Part shown: positions 3,098-29,381 of the stretch, one piece after another
Layout of the letters: each line of letters begins with the position of its first letter
Numbering within the stretch: the stretch's first letter is position 1
Source of the DNA: an uncultured Cryomorphaceae bacterium
GTDB lineage: Bacteria; Bacteroidota; Bacteroidia; Flavobacteriales_D; SKUL01
Length of the DNA: 64,000 bases
Assembly (NCBI GenBank): GCA_964487545.1
Contig: CAZARI010000007.1
Location: 19,634 to 83,633, forward strand
Reading direction: 5' to 3'
The notes under the pieces: model-generated
What the model saw: only the letters and a program-made list of their open reading frames with translations
What the model was told of the DNA's origin: nothing
Database searches by the model: none
Position numbers and translations under genes: made by a program

Positions 3098-3553
3098 TTA
3101 AAACCAGCCGCGCCCCATACCGGCATCTCTAAACGGCCACGGAATGGAAACAAGTATCAGCAGCAGCGCGATACCAAAAAATATCGCCACTGTTTTGTAC
3201 TTACCCTCGTTGCTTTCGATACGTTTAGAACGGGCGCTGGCCACGGTGATCAGCACAATGGCGATGAGCATGCCCAAGGTGTGTTCCACCACAAAAAACC
3301 GGGTGATGGACTGACTCATCACTCTGGCCATATCCGAAAAATGAGTTGCCCAGCCGTTCATGAAATAAAGGAGCAATCCCAATAGCAATTGAATGTGGGC
3401 CGTTAGCACCGTATAGGTGACCAGTTTTTTATGTCCCTTGGTATAATCTCTTTTTTCTTTCCAACCGATGAAAGAAGCAATAACCACATAAACGAGTAGG
3501 GCCAGAACCAACCATCGAAGTGCTGAATGTAGGTGAAGAATTCCTGTTGCCAT
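3098..3553 (-). CDS. Conserved Bacteroidota 4-TM membrane protein (often labelled cytochrome b-like)
   Basis: Four hydrophobic segments with His residues (HSALRW, HIQLLLG, EHTLGM) and C-terminal IPWP. Confidence 0.7.
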   Translation of the reverse strand: MATGILHLHSALRWLVLALLVYVVIASFIGWKEKRDYTKGHKKLVTYTVLTAHIQLLLGLLLYFMNGWATHFSDMARVMSQSITRFFVVEHTLGMLIAIVLITVASARSKRIESNEGKYKTVAIFFGIALLLILVSIPWPFRDAGMGRGWF

Positions 3554-9108: not shown

Positions 9109-9822
9109 ATGCTCTACCAAATCTCATCCGACAACATTCTCTTCATCGATATTGAAACGGTGCCGGTTCACTATCGGTTCGAAGAGTTGAATCCGGAAAT
9201 GCAACAGCTCTGGGATGAAAAAACCCGTTTTTTTCAGCAACGTGAAGAAACCGATGCTGCCGGCGTTTATCAACGATCGGGGGTGTATGCCGAATTTGCC
9301 AAAGTGATTTGCATTTCGCTCGGATATGTTCACCACACCAGTCACCGTGTGCTTCGAATCACCACCTTTTCATCTGATAACGAACAGGAACTACTCGAAT
9401 CATTTTGCAGCCTCATCAACAGTCGTTTCTCGTCTAATTATTATTTGTGCGGACACAACATCAAAGAATTTGACATTCCGTTTTTGTGCCGGCGAATGCT
9501 CATCAACGGAATCAAACTGCCCAACATGTTGAACCTTGCTGGCAAAAAACCGTGGGACATCAAGCACTTAGACACCATGGAACTCTGGAAATTTGGCGAT
9601 TATAAGCACTACACTTCGCTAAACCTGCTCGCACATGTCTTTGGCATTCCTTCGCCAAAAGACGATATCAGCGGTGCCGATGTTGCACGGGTATATTACG
9701 AAGATCAAGATCTCGAAAAAATAGTGCGTTATTGCGAAAAAGATGTCGTAGCCGTTGCCCAACTCCTTTTCAGAATGAAGGGCGAACCGCTAATTGATGA
9801 TAAAAACATCGTTGTTGTTTGA
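9109..9822 (+). CDS. 3'-5' exonuclease, PolB proofreading-like (DEDD)
   Basis: ExoI DIET, ExoII GHNIKEFDIPFL, ExoIII YCEKDV. Confidence 0.88.
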   Translation: MLYQISSDNILFIDIETVPVHYRFEELNPEMQQLWDEKTRFFQQREETDAAGVYQRSGVYAEFAKVICISLGYVHHTSHRVLRITTFSSDNEQELLESFCSLINSRFSSNYYLCGHNIKEFDIPFLCRRMLINGIKLPNMLNLAGKKPWDIKHLDTMELWKFGDYKHYTSLNLLAHVFGIPSPKDDISGADVARVYYEDQDLEKIVRYCEKDVVAVAQLLFRMKGEPLIDDKNIVVV

Positions 9823-9868
9823 CGGCTTGCACCGCTTTTCTAACTTTAGCCACTTTCTTGTTTTCACC

Positions 9869-10405
9869 ATGATTCTACGCCCGGCTTTCTGTATCATTTC
9901 CCTTTTACTGATGGTTTTCTTATCGGGTTGTGGAACAGACAAACTCCCAAGTCCTTCTCAACCTGAACTGCTGACCGCAAAAATATTTGGCGACAACGGT
10001 CATTTTCGCAGCAATAAAATCGGTAATTCGCTGGAGGAAGTTGTAGAACACGACCGCGATTTTCTTTTTAAAAGAAGGAGTGAAGAACTGGGTTATTCGA
10101 TACCGCTCGCTGCAAACGACAGTGCCCATTACGACGTTTCGTATTATTTTAAGCGAAATAGACTGGTGGAAATTCAAGTGGATGTTTTGCTGGGCACCGA
10201 AAAGAAAACAGAAAAACTCTTGGGCGCCTTTGTGGGTCATCTTCGCGAAAAATATGGCGATCCATCGGAAAAAACAGGCTATGCGTATTGGGAAATCACC
10301 AATCAACAACAGCGTCTGGAAATCACTCTTCGCGATGTAAGCCGGGAGCACAACCGGCCATTTTTGTCATTAAACTTTGTTGAACCCGACAGATTTAACC
10401 CGTAA
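9869..10405 (+). CDS. Hypothetical lipoprotein
   Basis: From MILRPAF: hydrophobic signal ending in lipobox LSGC; its stop overlaps the next start. Confidence 0.7.
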   Translation: MILRPAFCIISLLLMVFLSGCGTDKLPSPSQPELLTAKIFGDNGHFRSNKIGNSLEEVVEHDRDFLFKRRSEELGYSIPLAANDSAHYDVSYYFKRNRLVEIQVDVLLGTEKKTEKLLGAFVGHLREKYGDPSEKTGYAYWEITNQQQRLEITLRDVSREHNRPFLSLNFVEPDRFNP

Positions 10406-12177
10406 TGTCAGAAAACAAACAGCTACCCTTGCTCCACATCAAGGATCTACAGGTAACCTTTCGCACAGAAGAAGCCGAAGTGGTGGCTGTGGATGGCATC
10501 AATCTGACGCTTTTTCCGGGTGAAACCGTGGGCGTGGTGGGAGAATCGGGTTCGGGCAAAAGCGTAACGAGCCTGGCAGCCATGCGGCTCATTCCCGATC
10601 CTCCGGGAAAAATCACATCAGGTGCTATCCTGTATTCGGGCCGAGGCGAAACCGTAGATCTGCTATCCCTTTCGGAAAACGAAATGCGAAGTTATCGCGG
10701 CAATGATATCGCAATGATTTTTCAAGAACCGATGACGTCGTTGAATCCAGTGATGAAATGCGGCCAGCAAGTAAGCGAAGCCATTGTGCTTCATCAGAAA
10801 GTTTCCAAAAAAGAAGCGCGACAAAAAACAATTGAGCTGTTTAAGGAAGTGCTGCTGCCGCGCCCCGAAGCCATGTACGACGCCTACCCGCACCAACTAT
10901 CGGGCGGACAAAAACAGCGGGTGATGATTGCCATGGCACTGTCGTGTCAGCCCTCGGTGCTCATTGCCGATGAACCAACCACTGCACTTGATGTAACCGT
11001 GCAAAAAACCATTCTGGAACTGCTTAACGAGCTGCAGACCAAGCGAAATATGTCAGTGATTTTCATCACCCACGATTTGGGCGTAGTGGCCGAAATTGCC
11101 GACCGCGTGGTGGTGATGTATCGCGGAAACGTGGTGGAAGAAGGCAACGTGCAACAACTGTTCGAAAACCCACAACACCCTTACACAAAAGGATTGCTGG
11201 CTTGTCGTCCGCCGCTCGACAAACGCCTTAAAAAACTGCCGGTAATTGCCGATTTTCTCGATCGCCAGGAACCTACTGACAACGAACCTACGGTTAAAGC
11301 TGTGCAACACGACCTGGAATACACTTCCGAAGAAATCGCACAACACCGTAAAAAACTCTACGAACAGGAACCACTGCTGAGCGTGCGCAATCTGCAAAAA
11401 TGGTTTCCGGTAAAAAAAGGCCTGTTCAACCGCACTGTGGATCACATCAAGGCCGTGGACGATGTTTCCTTTGACGTTTTTCCCGGAGAAACCTTGGGAC
11501 TCGTGGGCGAATCAGGCTGTGGCAAAACCACCCTCGGCCGCACAATTTTAAAACTCACCAAACCCACTTCGGGCGAAATTTGGTACCGAAATCGCAACAT
11601 CACCGACTTTACGGCTGGTGAGATGCGCCCCATGCGGAAACACCTGCAAATCATTTTTCAGGACCCGTATTCATCACTCAATCCGCGGCTCACCGTGGGC
11701 GATGCCCTGATGGAACCAATGAAAGTTCACGGCATTCTCGACAGTTATCGGCAGCGAAAAGATAAGGTGATGGAGTTGTTAGAAAAAGTAAACCTGCACC
11801 CCGATCATTTCAGAAGATACCCGCACGAATTTTCGGGTGGCCAGCGCCAGCGGATTGTCATTGCCCGCACGCTCACACTTAATCCGGAGTTTATTATTTG
11901 TGACGAATCGGTGTCGGCGCTCGATGTTTCGGTGCAGGCTCAGGTGCTCAACCTACTCAACGACCTGAAAAAGGAATTCAATTTCACCTACATCTTTATT
12001 TCTCACGATTTGTCGGTGGTGAAATTTATGAGCGATCGGATGGTGGTGATGAACGGTGGTAAGATTGAGGAAATGGGCATTGCAGATGAGATTTATCGTC
12101 ACCCCAAATCGCCCTACACCCAGCGGCTAATTGACGCTATTCCCGGAACATCTCTCACAAAATCAGGCACCTTTTAG
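10405..12177 (+). CDS. ABC transporter ATP-binding protein with two fused OppD/OppF-type ATPase domains
   Basis: Two Walker A motifs ([16 protein letters not shown]), two signatures ([16 protein letters not shown]), HPYTKGLL and SPYTQRLI. Confidence 0.93.
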
Positions 12178-12258
12178 CGAGATTTACTACATTCGCGCCG
12201 TTATCAAGAACTCGTAATCAACCTCAACGCAAAGCAGGTATTGCTGTGCCCTTAATCA

Positions 12259-13995
12259 ATGACGAAAAGTCGCATCCAAAAAGCACTGCTGATTCTTAGC
12301 CTATTTTCCTGCTTGAGCATTTCCGCTCAGCAGCTTCAACTCGGTGCAGATCACGTGTATATTGATCACGAACTGAAAATGGTGGTGAGCAATCAAGACA
12401 TTGAATTGCTGAACTACCTCTATCCGTTTGGAATAACCTCCATCGAGCTCAACGGCCATTCTTACGATTTTTTATCAACGGTCAATCAACTCGAAACCGG
12501 CACCAGTTACGCCATTGAGGCTGACGAGAGTGTGTATCAATTGTATTTCACTTCACTCCCCGTTGTATCGATTGAGATGGATGGCATGCCGGTAAATTTT
12601 GAACGCAGACTCGCCACGGCATCCATTACCTCTTCTGACGGTGTTACCATACACGCTGACTTGGGTATTAACATCCGCGGCGGATACTCGCAATTTCTGC
12701 CAAAAAAATCGTATCGGATGGAGTTTGTATCGCTGGCAAACGACACGATGGTTAACCGCAACGTAAAGCTGCTTGACCTGCGCAATGACGATGACTGGCT
12801 GTTACTACCCATGTTCAACGAACCACTAAGGTTGAGAAATGCTGTTGGACACCGGCTCTGGGAAGATATGCACACTTTAAAGTATCAGCAAGAGGAACCA
12901 ACAGCGCTGCCAGGCACCCGTGCGCGCTACGTAGAATTAATTTTGAACGACAAATATCGCGGCGTTTATCTGCTCACAGAAAGGGTGGATCGCAAGCAGC
13001 TTCAATTGAAAAAATACAGTCAGGGCCATGATATGGAAGGTGAGCTCTATAAAGGAAGCGATTATGCTGCGGGCACCGTGACCTTCGATTTCCTGGCCTT
13101 TTACAACAACAACTCCCGCACTTGGGATGGATTTGAAAAAAAGTACCCACTGCGCGAAATGACAACCGACTGGAGTGGGCTTTACGAGCTGATTTCGGTG
13201 ATATTACAAACATCTGATTCGGTGTTCAGTCAGCAAATAAACAGTTATTTCGATCTGGACAATGCGGTAGATTATTTTCTATTTCTCAATTTGCTATATG
13301 CTCAAGACAACACCGGCAAAAACCTGTTTGTGGCTCGCTACAGTGCCGAGACCCCATTCTTTTTTGTTCCCTGGGATCTGGACGGCATTCTCGGTATTGA
13401 TTGGAAAAGCGATTTTCTGGGCATCCGTACCGACCTGCTCAGCAACGGCTTGTTTGACCGACTGGTGGTGAACTGATCGACAACGGGTTTCGGACTTAAG
13501 CTGAAAACGCGGTGGAGTGAACTGCGCGATTCATTGATTACCCCAGAAACCCTAACCGACAGAATTCTCCAGCAGCACGAATTGCTGATAAACAACGGTG
13601 TGTATGAGCGTGAACAAAAAGCATGGCCGGGATATAGTTATGATGCCGATATTTTAGATTACACCTTGCACTGGATAGAAAGCCGGTTTGCCTATCTCGA
13701 TGATTTCATTGCGGAATTTTGTGACGAAAACACACACTATGGTCCGCTGCGAACCATTGAACCGCAGGTGGATATCTACCCTGTTCCGACCACCCGTCAG
13801 TTGGGTGTACGGCATGTGGGCTTTGAGCCAGGCAGCCGGTATGTGCTGCGCGATCAATATGGAAGAATAGTTAAGCAGGGATTACTGGGCGTTCACACCA
13901 CCATTATCGACACAGGAATGCTGTCGGCCGGGGTTTATTTCATCGACTTGGAAGATGGTGTTAGGTTGGAAAGGTTGCGTTGGATGAAGCTATAG
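12259..13995 (+). pseudogene. CotH kinase-family protein with T9SS C-terminal domain, interrupted by one in-frame TGA at 13474-13476
   Basis: Track ORFs 12259..13476 and 13534..13995 share a frame and read ...FDRLVVN*STTGFGLKLKTRWSELRDSL... with no other stop. CotH motifs PKKSYRMEF, DNTGKNLF, VPWDLD; C-terminal IYPVPT...GRIV...LSAGVYFI. Confidence 0.8.
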
Positions 13996-21039: not shown

Positions 21040-22233
21040 GTGGATATGAGGATAAACGACTACGATTTTAAAGGAAAACGCGCACTGATCAGGGTAGACT
21101 TTAACGTTCCGCTAAACGATGCTTTTGAAGTGACCGACGACACCCGAATGCGGGCGGCCATTCCTTCGGCAAAGAAAATTCTTGAGGCCGGCGGATCGAT
21201 AGTTTTTATGTCGCACCTGGGGCGGCCCAAAGACGGGCCGGAAGATAAATTCTCCATGAAGCATCTTGTTGACACACTAGCTGAGCTGTTGAACAGGGAA
21301 GTGCAATTTGCCAACGATTGTATCGGTGATGACGCGTTTAAGAAATCCAAAGCGTTGAAACCCGGAGAAATTCTATTGCTCGAAAATCTTCGGTTTTACG
21401 AGGGAGAAACCTCCGGTGATAAAAGTTTTGCGCAGCAACTGGCCCAACACGGCGATATTTATGTGAACGATGCTTTTGGAACCGCTCACCGGGCACACGC
21501 CTCCACTGCGGTGATTGCCGAATGGATGGAGGAAAAATGTTTTGGTTTGCTGATGGAGAAGGAGCTCAAAAACTTGAAGCATTTTGTGGCCAATCCAAAG
21601 CCTCCGGTCACAGCGGTGATTGGTGGCGCCAAGGTATCCTCAAAAATTGGAGTGATGCTGACGCTGCTTCCCAAAGTTGATCAACTAATTATTGGCGGTG
21701 GAATGTCGTACACCTTTATCAAAGCATTGGGCGGCGAAATTGGCGATTCGTTGGTAGAAGACGACAAGCTGGAGCAGGCGGTGCAGGTGCTGGAAGAGGC
21801 CAAAGCGCAAAACGTAACTGTTCTGTTGCCCGATGATGCGGTGATTGCCGATGAATTTAAAAACGAGGCCAACCGCGACACAAGCCCATGCGACGATATT
21901 CCTCCGGGTTGGATGGGGCTCGACATTGGCGAAAAAACCGTTAAAAAATACCGGGCGGCTATTCTGGGCAGTGCGAGTATATTGTGGAACGGGCCGATGG
22001 GGGTTTTTGAAATGGACCATTTTTCGAACGGAACCAAAAAGATTGCTGAAACCATTGCCGACGCTACGGATAAAGGTGCTTTTTCGCTCATTGGCGGTGG
22101 CGATTCTGTTGCGGCCATTAACCGGTTTAAACTGTCGGACCGGGTAAGTTATGTAAGCACCGGCGGAGGTGCAATGCTCGAATTTCTGGAGGGAAAAGTG
22201 CTGCCGGGTGTGGCGGCGATTGAGGGGCAGTAA
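21040..22233 (+). CDS. pgk: Phosphoglycerate kinase
   Basis: RVDFNVPL, SHLGRP, NDAFGTAHRAHAS, GGAKVSSKI, WNGPMGVFE, STGGGAMLEFLEG. Start is GTG 21040 or ATG 21046. Confidence 0.97.
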   Translation: MDMRINDYDFKGKRALIRVDFNVPLNDAFEVTDDTRMRAAIPSAKKILEAGGSIVFMSHLGRPKDGPEDKFSMKHLVDTLAELLNREVQFANDCIGDDAFKKSKALKPGEILLLENLRFYEGETSGDKSFAQQLAQHGDIYVNDAFGTAHRAHASTAVIAEWMEEKCFGLLMEKELKNLKHFVANPKPPVTAVIGGAKVSSKIGVMLTLLPKVDQLIIGGGMSYTFIKALGGEIGDSLVEDDKLEQAVQVLEEAKAQNVTVLLPDDAVIADEFKNEANRDTSPCDDIPPGWMGLDIGEKTVKKYRAAILGSASILWNGPMGVFEMDHFSNGTKKIAETIADATDKGAFSLIGGGDSVAAINRFKLSDRVSYVSTGGGAMLEFLEGKVLPGVAAIEGQ

Positions 22234-22262: not shown

Positions 22263-22284
22263 AAAATGGTTGGGACGAATCCAA

Positions 22285-24657
22285 TCAATCTGCCAGTTTA
22301 ATGGCTTTTTTCACGAGTAGCTCTCCGTTTACGTATAGGGCGTAATGATACAACCCCGCTGGTAGGCCGGATGCATTCCACTCATAACGGTAGGTACCCA
22401 CTGCTTGTTCGGCTTCTACGATGGTTGTTATGGGTTTTCCCGTTTTATCAAATACTTTCAATACCACTTTGCCTTGTTGCTCAAGGGTATAACTAATGGT
22501 GGTTTGGCTCCTAAAGGGGTTTGGCGTGTTTTGATGTAACTCATTCACTGCCTTTTCTATTACACCTGGAGTTTCTTCATTAGGATGGAAGCTTGGTGCC
22601 GTTCTGTCGGTATTACAACAATGGTTGATTTGTTGTTGAAGTTCATTCAATTGCTCCATGATCTGCGCCATTGCTTCGTTTTGTGATTCAATGATGGATT
22701 GTTGCTCTTTGACTGCTGAAATGAGATAGGGAATTAACCCTGTGTAATTGACCGACTGAAATTCAATTGCGGCAGAAATTTCATTTCCCAAAGTGTCGAA
22801 CATTGCCGGTGCGGTGGTCTGTTTTACCAATTGAGGCAATACCTCTGCCAGTTCTTGAGCAATAACACCCTGTTGTTCTCCCTCGGGCAAGTTCAATTGA
22901 CTATATTCTTCTGTTAAAAAAGAATAGCTTTTGGGTTCAATCTGCTGTATTACTTCTAATGCCCCTTCTATGGGTTCAATGTTTTGTTTTAGTGTCTCGT
23001 CAGAACTCGTCCAAACTCCTGCTGTGCAATGAGTAGCTCCAACAAAGAAACCTGCCCAGTTTTCTACCGAAGCGCCACCCGCTGAACCATGAACACCGTA
23101 TGCGTGGGTTCCACCTCCGGCTCTGCCAAGCACAGCGAAAACTTGTTGGTTCGGACTGATATTGCTATTTCCTGCCAAAGCAAAAAATGCCCCCCCTATA
23201 GAATGTTCAACAAAAGAGTTAGGTTGAGAAATTGCCCACCCTTGCACGCCAAAATTTTGGAGTGTTGTGCCTGATTCTGCAGCATAGGCTCTAAAATCTC
23301 CGGCATAATTTATTCGAGCATTATAAACCTCTCCTCTTACTCCGCGGGCCTCGGGAAAATTAGGGTATCGTTTAACTGCTGAATATGTGCCCGTGACTAC
23401 ACCAAAAACATTATCACTTGGCGATTCCGTCCATATAACCCGCGCTCCAAATTCTTTTGGATTTCCTTGATTATCTCCATGAAATACATCAAGTTTGGCC
23501 TGAGGGGTTGCTACGCCAATTCCAACATGTCCACCTGGGTAGCAATCATTTCCAACGCCAGTAACAACATCATCAATACCCGGCACATTCTCGATTACTT
23601 CCCAATCGCAATCTGAAGTTCCATTTTCAATTTCAGACCATTCTCCTTGTCCATTTAAAAACATTGTTTCGCTATTAGGAAAGTCCAACCTACCCAGAAA
23701 ATTATCTGCTTCTCCCGAATTAACCTCATCAACTTGGTATCCGATGACTAATGTTTTAGGTGGTTCGTCGGGCAGGTTTCGAATTCGGGTGTAACCTTTG
23801 CCCACATCCAATGCAGTACCCACCATGGGGTCGGTTGCGTTGGAGGGATCATCAAAAAAACCGACGGCAAGCGCACGTAGAGATCCATTTGTCCGAGGCA
23901 CTATGTGCAGGTTGCCATGATTTGACACTTGGAAATCGGCATTGGTTCCGGTATTAACGTTTGTACTGCGTATTCGTGTAATTCGAAACTGCGGGTCATT
24001 TCTTTGCTTGATAACATCTAAGGTGCGGTGAGGTTGAAAGGTGTTATTCCAGTAACTGCCAAAACCTACGTGGCCATTACCGATCATACGTCCTAATTCT
24101 ACGCCGTCGTAGTCAGAAGCGTCAAAAACATCAGAGCTAATGGTGGTGGTGCCGTTGGCAACTCCTGCCGAGAATATAAACCGTAATACATCGGGGCCGC
24201 TCTCCGGTGATTTATTATCGCCCCATGCTATTACGGCATCGGTCAGGCTTTCATTATTGGCCTTCGGGCCAACGTACATAAAATCCCGATTATGGGTAAA
24301 AGTAATTCCAGCCTTCATCCAATCTCGGTACCCCCAGGGCTGTGGCCCCCAAGTGTTGCCTTCGCCGTAAAGGTGAAGCAATGAAAAGGGCTTGTGGTTA
24401 AACGCGGTAGGATCACTACTCAACAGCAAAAAACCGTCGTGATTGTAAGTATAGCCGTCTACGGTATTGATGCCGTTTTGCATCAGTTGCATATACGTGG
24501 TGTTGTTGGTGCGGAACTCGAGGTTCTGGCCGGCAGCATTGTAGCCTATAAATTTGCCTGTTCCCGGATTATTATTACCGCTTGTTGACTGTCCTGCCAA
24601 ATGTTGGGTAAAAGCTAATAATAATATGGCCAAACCAATGTGGGTGAAGTTTTTCAT
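22285..24657 (-). CDS. T9SS-secreted tail-fibre-like protein with peptidase S74 intramolecular chaperone
   Basis: Sec signal peptide, Gly-rich beta repeats (GVRGEV, GVQGWA, GVHGSA), S74 start WTSSDETLKQNI, GVIAQE, VNYTGLIPYLISAVKEQQ, a coiled coil, then T9SS CTD QNTPNPF...LPAGLYHYAL...KKAIK. Confidence 0.85.
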   Translation of the reverse strand: MKNFTHIGLAILLLAFTQHLAGQSTSGNNNPGTGKFIGYNAAGQNLEFRTNNTTYMQLMQNGINTVDGYTYNHDGFLLLSSDPTAFNHKPFSLLHLYGEGNTWGPQPWGYRDWMKAGITFTHNRDFMYVGPKANNESLTDAVIAWGDNKSPESGPDVLRFIFSAGVANGTTTISSDVFDASDYDGVELGRMIGNGHVGFGSYWNNTFQPHRTLDVIKQRNDPQFRITRIRSTNVNTGTNADFQVSNHGNLHIVPRTNGSLRALAVGFFDDPSNATDPMVGTALDVGKGYTRIRNLPDEPPKTLVIGYQVDEVNSGEADNFLGRLDFPNSETMFLNGQGEWSEIENGTSDCDWEVIENVPGIDDVVTGVGNDCYPGGHVGIGVATPQAKLDVFHGDNQGNPKEFGARVIWTESPSDNVFGVVTGTYSAVKRYPNFPEARGVRGEVYNARINYAGDFRAYAAESGTTLQNFGVQGWAISQPNSFVEHSIGGAFFALAGNSNISPNQQVFAVLGRAGGGTHAYGVHGSAGGASVENWAGFFVGATHCTAGVWTSSDETLKQNIEPIEGALEVIQQIEPKSYSFLTEEYSQLNLPEGEQQGVIAQELAEVLPQLVKQTTAPAMFDTLGNEISAAIEFQSVNYTGLIPYLISAVKEQQSIIESQNEAMAQIMEQLNELQQQINHCCNTDRTAPSFHPNEETPGVIEKAVNELHQNTPNPFRSQTTISYTLEQQGKVVLKVFDKTGKPITTIVEAEQAVGTYRYEWNASGLPAGLYHYALYVNGELLVKKAIKLAD

Positions 24658-25652: not shown

Positions 25653-25862
25653 AATTGATTGAAAGTTAGGATAAAAAATAATATGCCCCAAATATGGGAC
25701 TAATGTTTTTTCCCACAGCATCACTTTAGCTCTGTGAATCTGCATGCTGAACAAAGGCTCATCAAAACAATAGGAAAGCGCATTAGAGAAGAGCGTAAAC
25801 GGCAGGGAATTTCTCAAAACCAGCTTGCCTTTGAGGCAAAAATGCCCAGAGTGCAGATTGGA

Positions 25863-25870
25863 CGTATAGA
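25863..25870 (+). repeat. 8-bp target site duplication CGTATAGA (second copy 28187-28194)
   Basis: Identical octamers directly flank both IS ends; 8 bp is the typical IS66 TSD length. Confidence 0.93.
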
Positions 25871-25887
25871 GTAAGCCCCCGACTAAC
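25871..25887 (+). repeat. IS66 terminal inverted repeat GTAAGCCCCCGACTAAC
   Basis: Pairs with 28170-28186 (reverse complement GTATCCCCCCGACTAAC). The tnpC stop codon lies inside this TIR. Confidence 0.92.
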
Positions 25888-27451
25888 TACGCCCTGATTT
25901 TTCCCCTTGATATGCGTATGTGTCTTTTGATGGGAGCTGAAGGTTTTGCGGGAAGAGCTCATAGAGTTTGTTGACTTTGTGGTCTGCGATACGACCGAGT
26001 ACTTCTGTGAGCCAGGCCATAGGCTCTACGCCGTTTAGTTTGCATGTGCCTGTAAAGGTGTAGAACATGGCAGATCGACTGGCACCTTGATGCGAACTGG
26101 CAAAGAGGTAGTTCTTTCTTCCGAGTGCGTTTAGCCTGATGGTGTTTTCTACCAGGTTGTTGTCGATGAGCAGTTCGCCGTTATAGAGGTAATTTTGAAG
26201 GCTGTCCCAAAGATTTATTGCATAAGTAAACGCTTTGCCAATAGAGCTTTTGGGTAGTACGTGTTTGTTTTCAGCGGATATCCACTTGCCAAGCTCATTG
26301 AGGATAGGTAGAGATTTTTCAAGCCGAAGCTCCTTTCGCTGTTCTGGGCTAAGCAGCTTGACTTCACGCTCGACAGCATAGATCTGCTGTATGCGCACAA
26401 GAGCATATTGGGCACGGGCCTTGTCTTGGTCTAAGGCCTGCTCAAAATACCTGCGCGCATGCGCCCAGCATCCAAGGTGCACGATTTCTTCCTTTTGGGA
26501 ATATTCATTGTATACTCTGTATCCATCGGTTTGCAAGTAGCCCTGGTAATGTTGAAGTATCTTTTGGGGAGCGGGTTTACCGCGCCCCCGGTGATAGTCG
26601 AACACTACCATGCGTTTGGGGGGCGAGTGGTACACCCAGTAGTAACCCATGTGGCTCTTGCCTTTTTTGGTTTTGTCAAGCACCCTGGTAGGTGTCTCGT
26701 CTACCTGAAGGTAACCGTCAAGTTTTACCACATCAACCATGGCATCGTAGAGTGGTTCGAGTAATGTGCCCAGCTGCGCTACCCATCCATCTATGGTAGA
26801 TGGGGCAATGTGTATTGCTGCCCGCTTGAAGATTTGTTGCTGGCGGTACAGCGGCAGGTGGTCTACGTATTTGTTGATGAGTATGGAGCTGAGCAAGGTG
26901 TTTCCCGCAAGGCATTTTTCGATAGGCCGTGATGGCATATCGCCGATGAGCACCCCCTGACCACCGGGCAGGGCGTATTTGTTGCGTACCAGTACCAGCT
27001 TAAAAAACCGGGCAGGGGCCAACTCAAGTATTTCGGTGCGTTCTTCGCCTATTTTTACCATGCCTTCTACAGGAGTTGTTGGGTCTATCACCACTTCATG
27101 TACAGGCATATCTGCGGGCAGAGGATTGCGTCCTTTGTGATTTTCGTTCTTTTTGCGGGTATAGGTAATGGTTTCTTTAACGGGCTTATCGCCGTTGGTG
27201 CTTTGGCTTTTGTTAGTTAGTTCTTCAAAGGGCAAGTTGAGCTGATTGGCGATAACGATGTTTTCGGCCATGAAGCGCTCGCTTTTTGTACCAAAGTGCA
27301 TGCGGCGAAGGCGGTTTATCAGATTCTCCATATAGGTAATCATCGCTTCTGAACGCTCGTCTTTTGCTTGTGCCTTTTCAATGGCAGCATTTTGTTGTTT
27401 TACCAACGCTAAGAGTTGCTCTTTTGATAGGTTTTCAAGCTGCACTTCCAT
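25883..27451 (-). CDS. tnpC: IS66 DDE transposase TnpC
   Basis: Coiled-coil N-terminus, HFGTKSE, KYVDHLPLYRQ, QVDETP, LQTDGY, GCWAHARR, IDNNLVENTIR, GRKNYLF. Confidence 0.95.
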   Translation of the reverse strand: MEVQLENLSKEQLLALVKQQNAAIEKAQAKDERSEAMITYMENLINRLRRMHFGTKSERFMAENIVIANQLNLPFEELTNKSQSTNGDKPVKETITYTRKKNENHKGRNPLPADMPVHEVVIDPTTPVEGMVKIGEERTEILELAPARFFKLVLVRNKYALPGGQGVLIGDMPSRPIEKCLAGNTLLSSILINKYVDHLPLYRQQQIFKRAAIHIAPSTIDGWVAQLGTLLEPLYDAMVDVVKLDGYLQVDETPTRVLDKTKKGKSHMGYYWVYHSPPKRMVVFDYHRGRGKPAPQKILQHYQGYLQTDGYRVYNEYSQKEEIVHLGCWAHARRYFEQALDQDKARAQYALVRIQQIYAVEREVKLLSPEQRKELRLEKSLPILNELGKWISAENKHVLPKSSIGKAFTYAINLWDSLQNYLYNGELLIDNNLVENTIRLNALGRKNYLFASSHQGASRSAMFYTFTGTCKLNGVEPMAWLTEVLGRIADHKVNKLYELFPQNLQLPSKDTYAYQGEKSGRS

Positions 27452-27512
27452 GCTGTGAAGATACGCCAAAAGTTAGGTGTGCAAGATGTTTTAAGCATCA
27501 GTAATCAACACT

Positions 27513-27869
27513 TTATCTGGATAAAAAGCGCTTTCTTTTCTTGGTTTTTTCAAAATCAATACCTCGTAAAATCATGAATAATTCTTCTTTGGTGAGTTCA
27601 CTATTTGGAGCGTTAAGTCGGGCTGTTGGTCGTTTGAAAGTTCCGAGCTCCAAGCGTTTGTGAAAAAGCGCCAGTCCGTCAATATTCCAATGAAGCACTT
27701 TAATGCGAGTGCGCTGCCTGTTCATAAAAACAAACAGATAACCCAGGCGTGGATCCAGCTCCATGTGTTCCAAAACCAATCCGTAAAGTCCATCAAATCC
27801 CTTGCGCATGTCGGTGGGTTGAGCGTATAAAAACACTTTGGTGGCTTCCTCCAGACCAAACAAACTCAT
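27513..27869 (-). CDS. tnpB: IS66 accessory protein TnpB
   Basis: PTDMRKGFDGL, LFVFMNR, KVLHW..DG..LF.KRLE.GTF. Confidence 0.95.
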   Translation of the reverse strand: MSLFGLEEATKVFLYAQPTDMRKGFDGLYGLVLEHMELDPRLGYLFVFMNRQRTRIKVLHWNIDGLALFHKRLELGTFKRPTARLNAPNSELTKEELFMILRGIDFEKTKKRKRFLSR

Positions 27870-28114
27870 GCAAACACCAAAATTTTAACGCCCGATGGGG
27901 CTTCAATCTCCAATACTTTACCTAGCTTCACTTCGGAAAACCCAACCTCCTTAAAGCCTGTTTCGCCTGCTACAGATTGAGCGGCTTTCCATTTTGCAAT
28001 CCAGTAATTGAATTTTGCTTCGCTGTATTGCTTGCCATTTAAAAAATCAGATTTCCTAACCCCAGAGGCCAACCAGTCCTGAACCTCAGAGAACATTTCT
28101 TCTTGTAAACTCAT
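27866..28114 (-). CDS. tnpA: IS66 accessory protein TnpA
   Basis: 82-aa ORF at the first position in the IS, W..SG...DF...FNYW pattern, ATGA overlap with tnpB. Confidence 0.8.
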   Translation of the reverse strand: MSLQEEMFSEVQDWLASGVRKSDFLNGKQYSEAKFNYWIAKWKAAQSVAGETGFKEVGFSEVKLGKVLEIEAPSGVKILVFA

Positions 28115-28169
28115 ATCACGCAGTTTTGTGCGCGAAATTCATGAGGTTTTTAGGAACTGACAAGATGGG

Positions 28170-28186
28170 GTTAGTCGGGGGGATAC
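28170..28186 (-). repeat. IS66 terminal inverted repeat (tnpA side)
   Basis: GTTAGTCGGGGGGATAC, a 15/17 inverted match to 25871-25887. Confidence 0.92.
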
Positions 28187-28321
28187 CGTATAGAACGTGG
28201 AGAGATCAATACTACCATAGGTGCTCTTATTGTAATATGTCGTGTGCTTGATATTCATCCGAAAGAGCTTTTAGATCTTACAATTTGAAGATTCCTGATT
28301 TTAAAATTCCTGTTTTAAGTC

Positions 28322-28438
28322 TTAATTTTTTTTCATCCAGTCGCGGTAACCATTCTGCTGGGGGTTGCTTCCACCGTTATCTCCGTTCAGGTGCAGCAGC
28401 GAAAAAGGCGATTGTACCACCTGATTGATGCCAATAGG
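28322..28438 (-). pseudogene. Second, shorter paralog relic in a different frame (relic 2)
   Basis: Manual translation gives PIGINQVVQSPFSLLHLNGDNGGSNPQQNGYRDWMKKN*, repeating the PFSLLHL...GYRDWMK motif. It overlaps the tail of relic 1 out of frame. Confidence 0.72.
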
Positions 28439-28830
28439 GCGAACCCTGAGATGCCATAATTTCAAGTGTGTTTTGGGGTTGGGTTCCGGCGGTAAAAAAA
28501 TCGCCTATTCCCATCCTGCCGTTGTCTTGTCCGTCCACCCACATTCTGGCAAGTTCAAAACCATCGTTCGTAGAAGCCAAACCATTTCCGGGCGCTGCGG
28601 TAAATACAAACCGCAACAGATCGCCATTCTTCTTTGGTCCGACATACATGAAATCCTTATTGTGTGTAAAGGTTATTCCATATCGCATCCAATCGCGATA
28701 ACCATTATGTAGGGTTATTCCTGACTTATCCCCATTTAAATGCATTAACGAAAATTGTCTTACCATTGGTCCAAAACACCCAATGTAAATGATAAAACTT
28801 GTGCATAAAAAACCAGTTGGATGGCCAATT
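28377..28830 (-). pseudogene. Truncated paralog of the fibre protein N-terminus (relic 1)
   Basis: FSLMHL...GYRDWMRYGITFTHNKDFMYVGPK...LLRFVF aligns with FSLLHL...GYRDWMKAGITFTHNRDFMYVGPK...VLRFIF in 22285..24657. It has no signal peptide, an apparent internal deletion, and no S74 or CTD. Confidence 0.8.
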
Positions 28831-28832
28831 GT

Positions 28833-29381
28833 CTATTCCAACACCCCCTCCATTTCCTTTTGGGCTTCTTCGACAGCTTGAATGATGTCTTTAAAAGCGC
28901 GGCTGTCGGCAATTTTGGGAAAGTACTCTTGAGTTACATCCGCGAGTGGTTTGTAAAGTGTCGATTCGGCCAAGTGCGGACGCGGCAAAAACACAATATA
29001 CTCGTTTACCTTTTCGAGCAGCAAGACCACCACACTCAAAATCAAAACGGCGCGGGCGATGCCAAATACGCCTCCAGCAATTTTATCAGCCAGCCCCAAT
29101 GCTGCCAGTTGAATCGCCTTTTGAATAAGCCGCCCCAAAAAGTGAATGCCAATGACAATACCCAAAAACACGAGCGCAAACGCTACAAAGGGCATCATTG
29201 CGCCTTCAAATCCGTGTTCGTCGGCCAAGTATAGCCCCAGGTGATCGGAGAGCAACACGGCGCCGTAAATGCCCAAAACAAGCGCTAACAATCCGCTCAC
29301 GCTGATGATGAACCCCTTCATAAAACCGCGCACTGCGCCCCACAGCAGCGGCGCCAGAATAATCAGGTCGATGTAATTCAT
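28833..29381 (-). CDS. cvpA: CvpA family membrane protein
   Basis: MNYIDLIIL...RGFMKG, four TM segments, DKIAGGVFG..R, ESTLY. Confidence 0.9.
   Translation of the reverse strand: MNYIDLIILAPLLWGAVRGFMKGFIISVSGLLALVLGIYGAVLLSDHLGLYLADEHGFEGAMMPFVAFALVFLGIVIGIHFLGRLIQKAIQLAALGLADKIAGGVFGIARAVLILSVVVLLLEKVNEYIVFLPRPHLAESTLYKPLADVTQEYFPKIADSRAFKDIIQAVEEAQKEMEGVLE

Follow-up and report, generated by a model that had tools for sequence, protein, structure and literature searches.

Stacked fragments of type IX-secreted fibre-like genes beside cvpA in an uncultured Flavobacteriales bacterium as probable debris of island turnover

What are short, broken copies of the N-terminal module of a large fibre-like protein doing a few kilobases away from an intact gene for such a protein? 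The question is raised by the interval between cvpA and pgk in an uncultured bacterium of the Flavobacteriales, which lies in a stretch of 64,000 nucleotides that was analysed as a whole and is hereafter called the window (table 1). An initial annotation of this DNA had noticed that the motif FSLxHL...GYRDWM occurs three times, and had proposed that two of the copies, relic 1 and relic 2, are either deletion scars or a silent reservoir of donors for mosaic variation. The intact gene encodes FSLLHL-YGEGNTWGPQPW-GYRDWM; relic 1, an open reading frame (ORF) of 129 codons at 28377-28766, encodes FSLMHL-NGDKSGITLHN-GYRDWM; and relic 2, an ORF in another frame at 28322-28465, encodes FSLLHL-NGDNGGSNPQQN-GYRDWM. 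All three copies were recovered in their places by tblastn and by reading of the ORFs, and the three spacers had been quoted correctly. When the 790-aa protein was compared with the 64-kb window by tblastn, relic 1 matched its residues 89-222 over 28760-28437 (38% identity, E=1.7e-19) and relic 2 its residues 90-115 over 28408-28331, in another frame (65% identity, E=2.3e-5). Since these are exactly the two significant matches besides the gene itself, all others in the window having E>=0.2, the observation is confirmed far beyond chance.

Table 1. Features of the cvpA to pgk interval, breakpoints of the strain alleles and related regulator genes (window positions unless a contig is named)
Feature	Position	Strand	Description
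pgk	21040-22233	plus	Conserved right flank of the island
Intact fibre-like gene, 790 aa	22285-24657	minus	N-module, Peptidase_S74 chaperone domain and C-terminal T9SS sorting domain (CTD)
Probable right-hand boundary of the allele difference	22347/22348	none	X7 contig
NLVPNPSFE-family T9SS cargo gene, 333 aa	24654-25655	minus	First gene of the resident cassette
XRE/HTH gene, 76 codons	25734-28287	plus	Split by IS66 into 25734-25870 and 28195-28287
IS66 element	25871-28186	minus	Three ORFs, imperfect terminal repeats
AT-rich spacer, 43 nt	28288-28330	none	From the end of fragment C to the stop of the convergent XRE gene
Relic interval	28322-28832	minus	Between cvpA and the IS66-split XRE gene
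Fragment C	28331-28412	minus	(Q)SPFSLLHLNGDNGGSNPQQNGYRDWMK; first ~28 residues of another A-type module, aa 88-115
Fragment B	28413-28628	minus	72 codons, NGDLLRFVFTAAPGNG...SPYWHQSGGT; second half of a B-type module, ~aa 155-228
Fragment A	28629-28832	minus	TIGHPTGFLCTS...FSLMHLNGDKSGITLHNGYRDWMRYGITFTHNKDFMYVGPKK; A-type N-module, ~aa 68-134 of the family, 5'- and 3'-truncated
Allele 2 breakpoint (L012, X5, X7)	28603/28604	none	Window identity ends; ...NGDLLRFV then stop
Allele 3 breakpoint (X2)	28658/28659	none	Loose end equals L012 3298-3318 at 19/21 positions
cvpA (Colicin_V family)	28833-29381	minus	Conserved left flank of the island
XRE homologues	L017 6001-6234; L018 6001-6234; L019 4859-5092; L020 2422-2655		

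The relic interval resolves into three fragments, A, B and C, and relic 1 turns out to combine pieces of two subfamilies, which meet at 28629/28628 (K46/N47). Its first 46 residues are similar to those of A-type members (GYRDWMRYGITFTHNKDFMYVGPK), among them the resident 790-aa protein, and its residues 47-118 are 82-85% identical to the products of intact genes on contigs L007 and L008. Correspondingly, fragment A is ~65-70% identical to the A-type resident gene and ~30% to the B-type genes of L007 and L008, and it aligns with P0154 over 28829-28623 at 51% identity and with P0137 at 57%; fragment B, besides its close matches on L007 and L008, has 69-71% aa identity to P0024 and P0025; fragment C is 79% identical to P0040 and 81% to P0007, over 27-28 aa. 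The homology of fragment A reaches upstream of the incidental ATG of relic 1 as far as the cvpA stop (28832-28829; IGHPTGFL..., as in P0154 and P0021), so that the fragment begins directly after this TAG, in the reading frame of cvpA, and 152 codons remain open after it. The shared frame is probably a coincidence, for which the chance is one in three; read-through of the stop (window 28829-28835) would add 152 residues to CvpA.

The A/B joint is in frame and lacks about 21 residues, the segment that reads xDAVIAWGDN or EAIINFGNNPS in relatives. The absence of DAVIAWGDN from relic 1 had been pointed out before and is correct; its interpretation as a natural variant was rejected, for every natural relative read has kept the segment. 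The edges of the two fragments can be followed in other genes: an A-type gene in sample X1 tracks the window to 28630 and then continues with NGALDVTDAV, and a B-type gene in X3 and X4 tracks 28431-28628 and continues on its far side with FGNNPSSNGG. These contigs, which are proxies and not the parental sequences, suggest a microhomology of at most ~5 nt at the joint. Fragment C is out of register with A and B by one frame, and runs into KN and a stop codon at 28322-28324. Although the ORFs of the two relics overlap, as had been stated, the homologous segments do not, abutting instead at ~28412-28414. Together with the contact between fragment C and the spacer, which is the fourth, the pile contains four illegitimate joints.

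Members of the family have a full length of ~700-1000 aa. The fragments are truncated at both ends and retain only part of the N-module, with neither a start nor a signal peptide, Peptidase_S74 domain or T9SS CTD, and relic 1 had no match in Pfam or NCBIfam. The dN/dS of fragment B against L008 is 0.09, similar to that between the two intact genes of L007 and L008 (0.07); B would therefore have belonged to a working gene until recently, and the low ratio suggests a young relic.

A phmmer search with relic 1 against 1.84 billion representatives retrieved 322 proteins at E<=1e-3. The best full-length relatives (P0025, of 690 aa, P0024, P0026 and P0027) align with the relic solely over its residues ~43-120, with 56-71% identity, as a second, separate stretch. 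By similarity, the relics are assigned to a predicted T9SS-secreted, Peptidase_S74-bearing family of fibre-like proteins in Bacteroidota. In the resident 790-aa protein, Peptidase_S74 occupies aa 552-612 and the T9SS sorting domain aa 712-786, the latter scoring close to the thresholds (26.4 bits vs a cut-off of 27 in Pfam; 23.4 vs 23 for TIGR04183). Some relatives carry two FSLLHL...GYRDWM modules ~250 residues apart in one protein (P0020, P0021, P0028 and the products of L018 3757-4641 and L020 4-900), and in those read the A-type module precedes a B-like one. A scan of IMG/VR found no viral relatives of the N-module, which is therefore not a recognisable phage tail-fibre module. AlphaFold2 modelling of the N-terminal 300 aa from a 19-sequence alignment gave a mean pLDDT of 52, too poor for a fold search, and a full-text literature search found no paper linking Peptidase_S74 with type IX secretion.

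The interval was also compared between strains. Contig L012, a Logan contig obtained from a different sample, shows 99.2% identity with the window along 3266 nt (31869-28604), with zero mismatches in the last 348 nt, and then departs from it at a breakpoint shared with X5 and X7, both from compost (allele 2). Beyond the breakpoint, L012 has ~315 nt of unrelated DNA, then an NLVPNGSFE-type T9SS gene with 34% aa identity to the resident one, and then a different fibre-like gene, the ORF of which gave no tblastn match to the 790-aa protein. An apparent homology to the family beyond position 3266 of L012 was rejected as alignment read-through across the stop codon. In L012 only 54 codons of the relic 1 ORF remain, and the same length is implied for X5 and X7 by the joint that they share with it. 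Exact-protein look-ups with pgk and with the nlv gene of L012 returned nothing new to extend allele 2. In X2 (allele 3) only 36 codons from the ATG of relic 1 are kept, through THN. Since L012 contains 10-nt direct repeats TACACACAAT at 3202-3211 and 3288-3297, allele 3 appears to be allele 2 minus the 86 nt between them. Allele 2 in turn derives from an A+B ancestor, because the continuation of B in the window is family-native sequence. The stubs shorten with each event, from A+B to allele 2 and then, apparently, to allele 3.

The remainder of the interval varies as well. Contigs L013-L015, with 79% CvpA identity, show cvpA, ~130 nt and pgk, that is, an empty site. On L016 (75% CvpA identity) cvpA is followed, over 10585-12745, by an AbiEii-like toxin fragment, an ORF of unknown type and an AIPR-domain gene, so that in another lineage the site hosts predicted defence genes; contig L001, also with 75% CvpA identity, continues for just 594 nt past cvpA and has no fibre homology in that stretch. 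On the opposite side, the X7 contig differs from the window by 2 mismatches from the pgk end through the last 21 codons of the fibre CTD, and then passes into a diverged but homologous CTD (DASGLPAGLY). From the three strain alleles, in flanks that are ~99% identical, the empty site, the defence genes and the boundary in X7, we conclude that the cvpA-pgk interval is a genuine turnover hotspot, as the initial annotation had claimed. The accompanying claim, that recombination occurs at the conserved module, has weak support: the joints do lie inside the module, but they fall at non-homologous positions or in different frames, and one joint, specific to a strain, ties the module to non-coding DNA.

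Two elements next to the pile must be considered at this point. The IS66 element is flanked by a perfect 8-bp target duplication, CGTATAGA, and is a simple insertion into the XRE gene. As a cause of the truncations it was rejected: its target duplication is intact within XRE, and because the element ends 135 nt from the nearest relic, fragment C, it did not create the relics. The XRE gene itself has homologues with 70-74% identity on L017-L020, from other Bacteroidota, where it is always divergent to a pair consisting of an nlv-like/CHU_C gene and a Peptidase_S74 fibre gene, at unrelated chromosomal sites. XRE, nlv and fibre genes together look like a portable, regulator-linked cassette, to judge from this recurring arrangement. 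The gene convergent to XRE on L017-L019 is another nlv-like/CHU_C gene and never the 5' end of a fibre gene (the L020 contig ends too early to tell), so the junction of fragment C, spacer and XRE is also illegitimate. In the spacer, beyond the XRE stop (window 28288-28321), there is a near-direct repeat, ATTCCTGATTTTAAA / ATTCCTGTTTTAA.

Further observations concern the cassette at large. Sequence 97-99% identical to the 3' end region of the 790-aa gene (window 22284-22970) recurs in X1, X3 and X5, where what follows the stop codon is different (loose end CGCTTTAGAATCTATTTTG...). Depth over the X1 unitig 22322-22970 is 23.8, about twice the 10.7 of its flanks. The doubled depth and the 97-99% copy point to a second copy or to a co-resident strain with the same chaperone/CTD end, and the occurrence of this copy in another downstream context fits a cassette that circulates in the community. 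Near the cassette on L019, a JGI metagenome contig, four tandem 81-aa GIY-YIG genes lie at 9786-11045 with a regular spacing of 338 nt.

Considered together, these data lead us to regard 28331-28832 as probably non-functional debris, composed of three N-module pieces from three different family members (of A, B and A type) that were joined illegitimately and left behind by island turnover. The pile would mark the cvpA-proximal edge of a replacement island extending from cvpA to pgk, the present cargo of which is the cassette of XRE, NLVPNPSFE-protein and fibre genes. Each replacement or deletion joint would have fallen inside the remainder of the prior fibre gene, every event leaving a shorter stub with the next piece stacked against it. 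Mechanistically, an incoming cassette may have been anchored by homology on the side of pgk and the 3' end of the CTD, while at the cvpA side the joint would have formed without homology or at microhomology, as in homology-facilitated illegitimate recombination (HFIR) or some comparable process; deletion between short repeats may have done the later trimming. We infer the one-sided anchor from the pgk-side contig of X7, which is separate from the allele-2 contig at the cvpA side. Recombination of the HFIR type was reportedly described in naturally transformable bacteria by de Vries & Wackernagel (2002) and by Prudhomme et al. (2002). The term is used, for instance, in PMC6382021. The pattern deduced here would resemble it in having one homologous anchor (pgk and the last 21 CTD codons) and one non-homologous joint, inside a relic.

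A more ambitious version of this reading takes the stub pile as a layered record of serial captures of foreign cassettes, each anchored by homology on one side, in the conserved CTD and pgk end, and closed illegitimately next to cvpA, with the stubs doubling as short-homology landing pads; the pile would then be a natural example of HFIR shaping the diversity of T9SS fibres in uncultured Flavobacteriales. The role of landing pads is suggested because words of ~30 nt coding for GYRDWM are exactly common to other fibre genes of the community (X1, 28666-28703). We consider this extension speculative and on the whole unlikely.

Rather improbable, in our judgement, is the descent of all three fragments from a single gene, namely one multi-module and possibly mosaic fibre gene that followed cvpA and decayed on the spot, losing its 5' and 3' ends and two internal stretches, with no serial replacement. 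The existence of fibre proteins with two N-modules ~250 aa apart, as listed above, is compatible with such a gene, as are the in-frame joining of A and B at nearly homologous positions of the module and the X2 allele, which is consistent with ongoing deletion between short repeats. Against it, the affinities of the fragments change sharply, A having 30% and B 85% identity to the same relatives; the order in the two-module proteins read is A-type then B-like, not A-B-A; and in the zone of the joints the L012 allele shows replacement by foreign DNA, not deletion alone.

The proposal of a silent cassette reservoir, in which promoterless donors would pass segments to the expressed fibre gene through gene conversion, on the model of pilS/pilE or vls, is largely refuted, and we now hold it to be very improbable. 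Gene conversion from silent cassettes underlies antigenic variation in Neisseria (pilE/pilS), Borrelia (vlsE/vls) and Mycoplasma genitalium (MgPa/MgPar); these systems need long near-identical tracts around the variable segments, many cassettes and a conserved archive. The likeness lies in truncated, promoterless pieces of a surface-protein gene close to an intact copy (here 4.4 kb from an intact and probably expressed gene), and the spacer between the conserved motifs is indeed different in each copy. Their long identical tracts, numerous cassettes and conserved archive nevertheless have no counterpart at the relic pile. Between the relics and the 790-aa gene no exact word longer than 11 nt is shared; the 11-nt word sits at non-homologous positions and is a matter of chance, 200 shuffles giving words of 8-13 nt; the sole homologous nucleotide alignment covers 72 nt at 74% identity. 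The relics therefore have no nucleotide homology to the expressed gene that could serve as substrate for homologous gene conversion. There are only two or three fragments, and conspecific strains truncate them further, L012, X5 and X7 retaining fragment A and 8 codons of B. The interval contains no recombinase, invertase or reverse transcriptase except the IS66 transposase. Over the expressed module, X1 has no variant unitigs, the unitig of 24022-24524 being unbranched and identical to the window, with the proviso that Logan contigs drop rare variants. A scan for promoters and terminators near the relics stayed at the level of shuffled controls; the single consensus promoter match on the minus strand, at 28325-28298, lies past the end of fragment C and is no more than such controls give. 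Rfam at E<=1 had no match in 28150-28900. Of the two alternatives offered in the initial annotation it is therefore the other, deletion scars, that is upheld, in the wider form of deletion or replacement scars that strains progressively truncate.

It is extremely improbable, moreover, that the pile was created by an assembler stitching reads of paralogous fibre genes at the conserved GYRDWM words. In X1, the probable source run, the graph does branch at 28666-28703, its only branch, at a place where fragment A has 30-nt words in common with two further fibre genes of the sample. However, a single, unbranched k=31 unitig of the same run, 28157-28695, spans the IS66 end, the 3' end of XRE, fragments C and B, both internal joints and part of A, and its depth (12.6) equals that of the neighbouring unitigs (10.7 and 12.1). 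A unitig from an unrelated sample of another study (X4, 28633-28783) is identical to the window and crosses the branch region. Fragment A is 100% identical in L012, and contigs of X4, X5 and X7 cover parts of it without mismatch; the A/B joint and the first 8 codons of B are reproduced independently in L012, X5 and X7. X1, the source sample, is alone in showing fragment C and its joint to B. Equally negligible is the reading of the 129-codon ORF as a functional small gene, for an intracellular protein or a read-through extension of CvpA, since the open frame in phase with cvpA and the 122-aa protein that a gene caller predicted in public collections (P0023) are outweighed by a partial domain with 21 residues missing, the want of a signal peptide and of any Pfam or NCBIfam match, and the shortening of the ORF in L012 (X5 and X7 by implication) and further in X2.

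Debris of island turnover, the reading that we prefer, has recognised analogues. In the replacement flexible genomic islands described by Lopez-Perez, Martin-Cuadrado & Rodriguez-Valera (2014, PMC4033161), which encode exposed cell structures, peaks of synonymous SNPs mark boundaries situated in homologous flanks, and pressure from phages or predators is presumed to select for the exchange. The likeness is that, at the same site, conspecific strains have different but analogous genes for surface structures between conserved housekeeping genes. The difference is that the cvpA-side boundary is here an illegitimate joint within a pseudogene stub, adjoined by 348 nt without any SNP. Capsule and O-antigen switch loci, for example the pneumococcal cps between dexB and aliA, have gene remnants and IS elements at their edges. 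They are likewise hypervariable surface loci between conserved genes, with pseudogene stubs and an IS at the edge as the residue of past switches, but their cargo consists of polysaccharide genes and not of T9SS fibre-like proteins; moreover, the stubs described here are stacked pieces of one protein module, from different subfamilies of paralogues.

The scars are ordinary products of island turnover, so that the finding is largely ordinary and changes no general view; the tempting claim of programmed variation has been removed as unsupported. For annotators, the locus offers a worked example in which a public gene call, the P0023 protein, is a pseudogene fragment. For the biology of this uncultured member of the Flavobacteriales, the three alleles from independent samples document the turnover of a fibre island, in which the whole cassette is swapped and the prior occupant is reduced to an ever-shorter stub, and the locus may be of use as a modest collection of naturally formed illegitimate joints from Bacteroidota.
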